This document shows positions 29,871-32,800 of a DNA stretch of 64,000 bases, one piece after another. Each line of letters starts with the position of its first letter. The first letter of the stretch is position 1. Made by a program: the position numbers. Where the stretch lies: the NCBI RefSeq assembly GCF_013167455.1, contig NZ_CP038328.1. One strand, given 5' to 3'. The stretch comes from Escherichia coli O157:H7 (GTDB taxonomy: Bacteria; Pseudomonadota; Gammaproteobacteria; Enterobacterales; Enterobacteriaceae).

Positions 29871-32800
29871 TAGTTTGTACACCGTCCGATACTCAATCGC
29901 CAAAAAGAAAAAAGCCAGCAGATAATCACTGCTGGCGTGGCGATTAACACCAATACTCAGTCACACATGATGTCCGCAAATCAGTAGTCAGAATGACTCC
30001 CCTCCCACTGCATCAGTTCTTCAAGCATGGTTAATCGTTGTGGGACGCTTAACCAACGCAACCAGCACAACTTCGCTGTCGCGGTAAAATAGTGCTGATA
30101 AAACTGACGAATGGGGCACCTCCTTGCTTCATCGTTAGGAATTATTGACTTAATATAGGGAAAATAAAATTGCTGTCTTTTGCGCAGGAGTTCCCCTTTT
30201 ATGCCATCTGCTCGTCTGCAACAACAGTTCATCCGCCTGTGGCAATGCTGCGAGGGTAAATCGCAGGACACAACGCTCAACGAACTGGCAGCGTTATTGA
30301 GCTGCTCGCGTCGTCATATGCGTACCCTGCTCAACACCATGCAGGATCGCGGCTGGCTGACGTGGGAAGCGGAAGTCGGGCGTGGTAAACGCTCGCGTCT
30401 GACATTCCTCTATACCGGGCTGGCGCTTCAGCAACAGCGGGCGGAAGACCTGCTGGAGCAGGACCGTATCGACCAACTAGTGCAGTTAGTTGGCGACAAA
30501 GCGACTGTGAGGCAAATGCTGGTTTCTCATCTGGGCCGCAGCTTCCGCCAGGGGCGGCACATCCTGCGCGTGCTCTACTATCGTCCGTTGCGTAATCTGC
30601 TACCTGGCAGCGCATTGCGCCGTTCCGAAACCCATATCGCCCGGCAAATCTTCAGTTCGCTAACGCGCATAAATGAGGAAAATGGGGAACTGGAAGCAGA
30701 CATCGCCCACCACTGGCAGCAAATATCACCGCTTCACTGGCGTTTCTTTTTGCGTCCAGGAGTCCATTTTCATCATGGTCGTGAACTGGAAATGGACGAC
30801 GTGATCGCCTCTTTAAAACGAATCAATACGCTGCCGCTCTATTCGCATATTGCTGACATTGTGTCGCCGACGCCCTGGACGCTGGATATCCACCTCACGC
30901 AGCCGGATCGCTGGTTGCCGTTACTGCTGGGACAAGTTCCGGCGATGATCCTGCCGCGCGAATGGGAAACCCTCAGTAACTTTGCCAGCCATCCCATCGG
31001 CACCGGTCCGTATGCGGTGATTCGCAACAGCACCAATCAACTGAAAATTCAGGCATTCGATGACTTCTTCGGTTACCGGGCATTAATCGATGAAGTTAAC
31101 GTCTGGGTTCTGCCGGAAATTGCCGACGAGCCAGCCGGAGGGCTGATGCTAAAAGGTCCACAGGGCGAGGAAAAAGAGATTGAAAGCCGCCTGGAGGAAG
31201 GTTGCTACTATTTACTGTTCGATAGCCGCACCCATCGCGGGGCGAATCAGCAAGTCAGGGACTGGGTAAGCTATGTGCTTTCTCCAACTAATCTGGTCTA
31301 TTTCGCTGAGGAACAGTACCAGCAACTGTGGTTCCCGGCTTATGGACTGCTCCCCCGTTGGCATCATGCCCGCACCATAACGAGCGAAAAACCGGCTGGT
31401 CTGGAAAGCCTCACCCTGACCTTTTATCAGGATCACAGTGAGCATCGGGTGATTGCCGGGATCATGCAGCAGATTCTGGCAAGCCACCAGGTCACACTGG
31501 AAATCAAAGAGATCAGCTACGATCAGTGGCATGAAGGAGAGATCGAGAGCGATATCTGGCTTAACAGCGCCAACTTTACGCTGCCGCTGGATTTTTCGCT
31601 GTTCGCGCACCTGTGCGAGGTACCGCTGCTCCAACACTGTATTCCAATCGACTGGCAAGTCGACGCCGCCCGCTGGCGCAATGGCGAAATGAACCTGGCG
31701 AACTGGTGCCAACAACTGGTCGCCAGCAAAGCAATGGTGCCACTTATCCACCACTGGCTGATCATTCAGGGACAACGCAGTATGCGCGGCCTGCGCATGA
31801 ACACCCTCGGCTGGTTTGATTTTAAATCAGCGTGGTTTGCGCCGCCGGATCCAGAGTAGCTTGCGCCTTTTGGCGGTCATGAGCGCATTTTTTATATTCA
31901 GACGGAATGATAAAATACATTACTTTTATATTTTCTCTGTTTTATGCATCGTCTGATTAGCGTCGCAAATAAGATTAAAGAAGGGGCATTCCAGCCCCTC
32001 TTTCATATTCTGAGTTAATCAATAACGGCGCAGTCTAGCCTTGTTCTGGCCGGAAAGGTCAGCTTTTTCAGGTTAACCTCGCGCAGGTCAGTCATACCAA
32101 CGGCTATTGTTCGTTTCAGCATTGCTCAGGTCAACCTCGAGACAGTCAATACCACAAATGACAACCCCGTTAAAGTAAGCATTACTCAGATCAATCCCCC
32201 CGGTCCTGGTGCTCTTTTTCAGCTGCAACTCCAGAGTAAATATCGCCTCATCGCCAATAAAAAAACTGACGCATAACGTACCTTCTGGCGAGAGTGAGGC
32301 CTTCGCGGCCATATTTTCCGGATCTTTTGCGTATTCTTTGAGTTCATTAAATTTTATCAGCCAGTGAGTTAACTTATCACGCGCCTTCCCGTCGACAGCC
32401 CCGGTAAAGTATTTTGAGTAGTCATCACTATTCTGGAAATAAAATGCATCCTTCAGAATTTGCCTTGCCGCAGTCTGGGAATGTTTATCTGACTGGAAGA
32501 GATTGCGTAACGTCTCCCATAGCTCTTCAAAGATATTCATATTCTCGGTCTTTTTGACCAAGTTAGCCATCCTGATAATCTGAGAATTAGTAAGGCCTGG
32601 ATCTTTAGTGGTATTACTAGCAGGGATACTAATCTGTTCTGGGTTTCTTACTTTCATGCTGATAGCTCCACTCTGAATAAAAAACTCAGAATAAGCGTCC
32701 TGAATAAGAATACTGTCAAAAATCGCTCATTCACGCAATAAACGGTTACGTTACCTATTTTGACTGTAGCGAAGGGATTCTTTCGGATCAACGCTCTCCA

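Follow-up and report, generated by a model that had tools for sequence, protein, structure and literature searches.

The junction between leuD and the small RNA gene sgrS of Escherichia coli O157:H7, examined in a 64,000-nt stretch of DNA from this organism (the window), lacks setA, the transporter gene that separates the two in K-12. Comparison of this junction across E. coli and related genera indicated that setA was very probably lost through one old deletion early in the genus Escherichia, that the setA-less state was inherited widely, and that the block now found in K-12 was probably exchanged later. The 1-kb stretch over the junction is 100% identical to O157:H7 chromosomes. An earlier note, made from the sequence alone, had put the end of the SgrS terminator about 33 bp from the leuD stop codon and concluded that setA appears to be missing at this locus; the gap (29874..29906) measures exactly 33 bp, and the K-12 arrangement on which the note relied is correct, the order in MG1655 being sgrR, sgrS, setA (b0070, 77621..78799) and convergent leuD. 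A K-12-type sgrS-setA operon has the setA open reading frame (ORF) ~27 bp past the SgrS terminator, so that readthrough transcripts encode SetA; in the window the leuD stop codon is reached 33 bp past SgrS, and a tblastn search of all 64 kb with K-12 SetA, a SET-family sugar efflux transporter that matches Pfam MFS_1, returned only noise (E values of at least 0.41). The absence of setA is thereby confirmed structurally and, because the structural difference is identical in 2159 complete genomes, chance is not at issue.

Pairwise comparison with K-12 placed the breakpoints at window positions 29867/29868 and 29907/29908, between which 1261 bp of K-12 replace 40 bp of the window (29868..29907). 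The K-12 segment contains setA with a 27-bp sgrS-setA spacer and a 48-bp setA-leuD spacer, the latter encoding a stable hairpin just past leuD (−17.4 kcal/mol) that is missing from the window. The two loci are alike in the divergent arrangement of sgrR and sgrS, the sgrS promoter hexamers, the base-pairing core of SgrS, and the neighbouring leuD and thiamine transporter genes, and differ in that the window has no setA, a 33-bp spacer, ATT as the start of sgrT, and no hairpin after leuD. They also differ in the tail of the SgrS terminator, which is T6-C-T5 in the window, resembling most other genera (T6-C-G...), and an uninterrupted T8 in K-12, and in the end of leuD, which reads ATG CGT TAG (M R stop) in the window, as in Citrobacter and Salmonella, and ATG AAT TAA (M N stop) in K-12.

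The distribution of the setA-less junction was surveyed in 5426 complete E. coli genomes, where a junction was counted as contiguous if at least 80% of the query matched at ≥95% identity. Contiguous setA-less junctions were found in 2159 genomes (~40%), 397 of which match the window at ≥99% over 1 kb, the two O157:H7 records listed doing so at 100%; in the remaining genomes the query split into two places. A sensitive blastn search with K-12 setA over the complete genomes, plasmids included, found the gene at ≥95% identity in 3240 E. coli records, while another 2182 matched only over 148 nt (13% of the query) at ~73% identity, inside the paralog setB. The whole-genome search that the earlier note had proposed thus located setA matches of O157:H7 genomes in setB only, as exemplified by strain OK1 with its single match there; no SetA ortholog was found in the O157:H7 genomes covered by this blastn search, plasmids included, the exact source genome of the window not being searched as such. 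The E. coli setA copies are highly uniform (3226/3240 at least 99% identical to K-12), and a search with the MOD1-EC7003 setA, meant to pick out the 14 genomes whose copies are 95–99% identical to K-12, gave no E. coli allele above 98.9% and nothing distinctive. Among individual strains, IAI1 carries setA and IAI39 does not, 042, IAI39 and an O25b:H4 strain (sequence type 131, ST131) have the contiguous junction, and CFT073 lacks setA and bears a copy of IS200C in its sgrS-leuD junction (CFT073 locus 5862..6679). An insertion of this type may explain some of the ~23 setA-less genomes in which the junction is not contiguous. We take these strains to represent phylogroups B1 (IAI1), F (IAI39), B2 (CFT073 and O25b:H4/ST131), D (042) and E (O157:H7). 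The absence of setA is therefore a property of whole lineages and not a peculiarity of one strain; within E. coli, it is the lineage of K-12 that is the odd one.

To distinguish insertion from deletion, a comparison also suggested in the earlier note, we used 80 SgrR-anchored loci from species-representative genomes, 76 from outside Escherichia (Citrobacter, Salmonella, Enterobacter, Klebsiella, Raoultella, Kluyvera, Leclercia, Lelliottia, Trabulsiella, Yokenella, Atlantibacter and Buttiauxella among them) and four from within. A SetA homolog with 75–91% amino-acid identity lies directly upstream of sgrR on the opposite strand in 76/76 of the non-Escherichia loci, in most of them with leuD just past setA; setA is therefore ancestral at this position in Enterobacteriaceae, and the empty site is a deletion. 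The Escherichia loci are divided: E. albertii, E. whittamii and Escherichia sp. E1V33 have no setA, and Escherichia sp. MOD1-EC7003 has it. The three setA-less loci have their spacer and breakpoints in common with the window, differing by a few substitutions and one 2-base indel, which points to a single deletion event. Junction identity between O157 and these three (91–96%) is no higher than that of leuD and the start of sgrR, so that the junction has diverged in step with its flanks, as expected of an old event and consistent with vertical inheritance. The spacer itself retains likenesses to both lost intergenic regions: its sgrS-proximal ~10 bp past the SgrS T-run, CTTTTTGGCG (− strand), resemble the Citrobacter sgrS-setA spacer CGTTTTGGC, and the ~15 bp next to leuD are similar to the first part of the leuD-setA spacer in Citrobacter and Salmonella. 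As a separate observation, the Trabulsiella odontotermitis locus matches setA in two pieces at 4591..5653 (residues 1–86 and 115–392), which suggests a disrupted or rearranged setA.

The sequences flanking the deletion point to a later exchange in the K-12 lineage. Over the 3′ 102 nt of sgrS, O157 and K-12 are only 73.5–74% identical, with 98–100% identity resuming just beyond; over the same 102 nt the identity of O157 is 96–97% with the setA-less E. albertii, E. whittamii and E1V33, and among the six Citrobacter species compared it is 84% with four, 81% with C. braakii and 67% with C. youngae, while K-12 is 100% identical to MOD1-EC7003. On the other side, the last ~230 bp of leuD are 90–93% identical between K-12 and O157. 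K-12 and MOD1-EC7003 share 98–99% identity over setA and the sgrS 3′ end and 92–94% in the flanking leuC and sgrR, a pattern that, judged from these alignments, looks like the signature of recombinational exchange of the block. Within E. coli, the O157-type sgrS 3′ allele is fully linked to the absence of setA, and the number of genomes matching the junction query at 90–95% identity (3241) equals the number found to carry setA with the MOD1-EC7003 setA query.

These comparisons bear on several alternatives to an early deletion. The empty site might be primitive, with setA first inserted in the K-12 (A/B1) lineage; acquisition of setA by the A/B1 sublineage has been proposed (PMC6896753), and the setA-less state of strains from early-branching E. 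coli phylogroups and of three sister species suggests that the ancestor of E. coli probably had no setA. Yet setA occupies the exact position and orientation in all 76 non-Escherichia loci, and the setA-less spacer retains traces of both intergenic regions, which makes a primitive site highly improbable; what is left of the proposal is a re-acquisition at the ancestral position, and this the deletion scenario already contains. Repeated independent losses across Escherichia lineages are more improbable still: IS200C in the CFT073 junction and the mosaic state of both flanks mark the site as a hotspot of change, but all setA-less sequences compared have identical breakpoints and the ~33-bp spacer, with one junction covering the 2159 E. 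coli genomes at ≥95%. Relocation of setA within the genome, or an artefact of assembly, can practically be dismissed, as we found no evidence supporting either, the short setB match is all that K-12 setA finds in 2182 records (O157:H7 included), and the 2159 complete assemblies with the contiguous junction are independent.

A more serious contender is an ancient trans-species polymorphism, in which setA-plus and setA-minus haplotypes would have coexisted since before the Escherichia species split and been shuffled by recombination, A/B1 never having lost setA and nothing having been imported from outside the genus. Several observations weigh against an old deletion followed by import, and some of them favor such a polymorphism. 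K-12 setA is 76–79% identical in nucleotide sequence to its Citrobacter and Salmonella counterparts (48–54% at third codon positions), a distance similar to that of the flanking sgrR; none of the 76 non-Escherichia loci qualified as a donor of the K-12-type block, and the best 120 matches in a protein search with K-12 SetA were all near-identical E. coli variants, with no intermediate to the ~88%-identical Citrobacter and Salmonella proteins; and the setA-plus block is also present in MOD1-EC7003, an Escherichia other than E. coli. Moreover, the divergent ~100-nt block of sgrS is non-coding and may simply evolve faster, and the species-level distribution is incomplete, with E. fergusonii, E. 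marmotae, E. ruysiae and Shigella lying outside the 80 loci (as do E. coli and S. enterica subsp. enterica, which the species-representative set likewise leaves out). Against the polymorphism stand the sgrS 3′ alleles, which with 73.5% identity are less alike than O157 and most of the Citrobacter sequences compared, the 98–99% identity of the setA-plus block in K-12 and MOD1-EC7003 despite flanks that differ by 6–8%, and the great uniformity of E. coli setA; the block data fit one recent introduction better, and we regard the polymorphism as unlikely, if far from negligible. For setA in A/B1 we accordingly lean towards re-acquisition by homologous recombination over continuous retention.

The deletion scenario runs as follows. 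Early in the genus Escherichia, a single deletion of ~1.25 kb very probably took out setA together with the greater part of the spacer on either side and the leuD-side hairpin, left the 33-bp gap as its scar, and was passed on to E. albertii, E. whittamii, E1V33 and the lineages of CFT073/ST131, 042, O157:H7 and IAI39. The A/B1 strains would then have regained setA at its ancestral position by homologous replacement with a ~1.6-kb tract from a divergent donor, a tract that takes in the 3′ ~100 nt of sgrS, setA and the end of leuD. In strains without setA, the SgrR-activated sgrS promoter would yield SgrS alone, readthrough past the SgrS terminator would presumably run antisense into leuD, and leuABCD transcripts would probably reach sgrS without meeting a hairpin of their own. 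A bolder proposal, which we put forward tentatively and rate at slightly less than even odds, is that K-12 carries a non-native module from a divergent, unsampled enterobacterium, made up of setA and the 3′ ~100 nt of sgrS with its seed flanks, Hfq-binding region and terminator. If so, the module would have been imported into A/B1 and at least one cryptic Escherichia lineage, restoring a gene that the genus had lost, and the form of SgrS native to Escherichia would be that of O157, CFT073 and E. albertii, which ends in T6-C-T5 and has no cargo gene behind it. Between the haplotypes there could then be differences in termination efficiency, Hfq binding, target regulation and the fate of readthrough, which would be productive (setA mRNA) in one and antisense to leuD in the other.

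In K-12, transcription from the SgrR-activated promoter that reads through the SgrS terminator yields sgrS and setA on one transcript, and these longer RNAs fail to bind Hfq and are presumed to act as setA mRNA; with the SgrS terminator on a plasmid, about half of the polymerases read through during normal growth (PMC9765468, PMC4509938). With no setA in the window, such a transcript cannot exist there. The earlier note had held that the SgrS stress response is uncoupled from SetA-mediated efflux in this strain: the uncoupling stands in so far as no sgrS-setA transcript is possible, but the efflux arm is itself unsettled (PMC4021124). A setA mutant recovers more poorly in some stress conditions, and a test of whether SetA exports the stress sugar gave no support for the idea (PMC4021124). 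Work in K-12 has also stressed that Hfq binding needs a long 3′ U-tail, so that termination or Hfq binding may not be the same with the T6-C-T5 and T8 alleles.

The second arm in question is SgrT. The sgrT frame in the window is intact over 43 codons, with ATT in place of ATG as its first codon; the Prokaryotic Genome Annotation Pipeline (PGAP) still annotates sgrT, under the protein accession that CFT073 and IAI39 also have, and the exact 61-nt ATT-sgrT allele is present in 311/5392 complete E. coli genomes. In PMC2760817 the start-codon mutation is described as specific to, or typical of, O157:H7, and there and in PMC4021124 the SgrT function of O157 is presumed lost. The promoter, base-pairing core and terminator of SgrS are all intact in the window. 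Together with the loss of setA, the doubtful sgrT leaves base pairing as what appears, from sequence, to be the only clearly intact arm, and the glucose-phosphate stress response of O157:H7 appears to be reduced to SgrR and SgrS base pairing.

The assignment of the small RNA gene is secure (Table 1). It scores 228.1 bits against Rfam RF00534 (gathering score 37) with all of model positions 1–232 of 232 covered, contains the base-pairing core and an intrinsic terminator, and adjoins a divergent sgrR whose product is 99% identical in amino acids to K-12 SgrR. The base-pairing core CATCATGTGTGACTGAGTATTGGTG is intact in the window and unchanged in 17/18 other taxa aligned, and the promoter hexamers equal those upstream of K-12 sgrS. 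The terminator hairpin (29936..29914, − strand) has an 8-bp stem with six G-C pairs and a 7-nt loop, followed by TTTTTTCTTTTT down to 29902, the T6-C-T5 tail. Between leuD and sgrS, which converge, there is no other terminator-like site; read on the leuD strand, the shared hairpin leads into GTGGCGATT, with no T-run. An extended inverted repeat (29884..29955) surrounds this terminator, in which the spacer sequence GGCGATTGAGTATCGG (− strand) can pair with the seed-proximal TTGGTGTTAATCGCCA; its predicted fold (−30.8 kcal/mol, z-score −3.7) would form in readthrough transcripts only, and the repeat was considered as a functional element and set aside because its outer arms are only partly conserved among the other setA-less species.

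Table 1. Coordinates of the leuD-sgrS-sgrR region in the 64,000-nt window.
Feature	Coordinates	Strand	Basis or remark
leuD	29268..29873	+	last gene of leuABCD; ORF list, PGAP annotation of an identical O157:H7 record, leuD-end comparison
33-bp spacer	29874..29906	.	between leuD stop codon and SgrS 3′ end
SgrS intrinsic terminator	29902..29936	−	hairpin and T-run
sgrS small RNA gene, full length	29907..30133	−	Rfam RF00534, 228.1 bits, model positions 1–232
Divergent haplotype block of sgrS (3′ ~100 nt)	29908..30007	−	identity comparisons
sgrT frame within sgrS	29981..30112	−	first codon ATT at 30112..30110
sgrS promoter-like hexamers (AAGACA, 16 nt, TATATT)	30152..30179	−	
sgrR, activator of sgrS, divergently transcribed	30201..31859	+	ORF, PGAP annotation

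Other differences from K-12 lie at the far end of sgrR. The 3′ end of the gene (31458..31807) is 81–91% identical to K-12, against 96–100% over most of the rest, and adjoins an espY2 indel, making it a second divergent block beside a presence/absence difference. The indel is an islet of ~1 kb (31854..32863) between sgrR and the thiB thiamine pyrophosphate riboswitch, absent from K-12, IAI1 and CFT073. It contains an intact 189-aa ORF (32088..32657, − strand) that is 87% identical to an IAI39 gene annotated as the type III secretion system effector EspY2 and that matches nothing in Pfam; strain PV15-279 of O157:H7 has the EspY2-like gene as a pseudogene adjoining IS1203. Elsewhere in the window, the chromosomal ftsA-ftsZ region matches the Rfam family PssrA ("Plasmid-encoded Shigella sRNA A") at 3410..3499 (− strand, 105.5 bits); the matching region is present at ≥95% identity in 5424/5426 E. 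coli genomes, and the name of the family is misleading here.

The pattern of setA absence was already known and amounts to an ordinary, lineage-wide difference in gene content. The restriction of setA to the A/B1 sublineage of E. coli was reported by Gonzalez-Alba et al. (2019, PMC6896753), who read it as acquisition; our presence/absence pattern agrees with theirs, and differs in interpretation in that setA is ancestral at the site and was very probably deleted early, so that any gain in A/B1 becomes a restoration by homologous replacement. The present analysis adds that setA is ancestral at this position in Enterobacteriaceae, that E. albertii and E. whittamii share one old deletion with the window, and that there is evidence for recombination of the K-12 block; these additions refine the published account and change the picture little. 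For the sgrS-setA locus, K-12 is unrepresentative, and its operon and readthrough results are not directly transferable to O157:H7, uropathogenic B2 strains or E. albertii, in all of which setA is missing and the 3′ end of SgrS differs.

The window sgrS corresponds to the CFT073/O157:H7 Sakai allele described by Horler and Vanderpool (2009, PMC2760817), who give 88% identity to K-12 SgrS and 99% identity between the two pathogen sequences; those identities and the start-codon change agree with ours. The searchable text of that paper contains no discussion of the absence of setA, and the legend of its Figure 2 includes setA in the synteny maps. A parallel is offered by reduced SgrS systems such as that of Yersinia, which has no sgrT (PMC2760817, PMC4021124): there, too, accessory functions have proved dispensable and the base-pairing region has been retained. 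Unlike Yersinia SgrS, the O157 RNA is full length, and what has been lost is the downstream transporter gene and the canonical start codon of sgrT.

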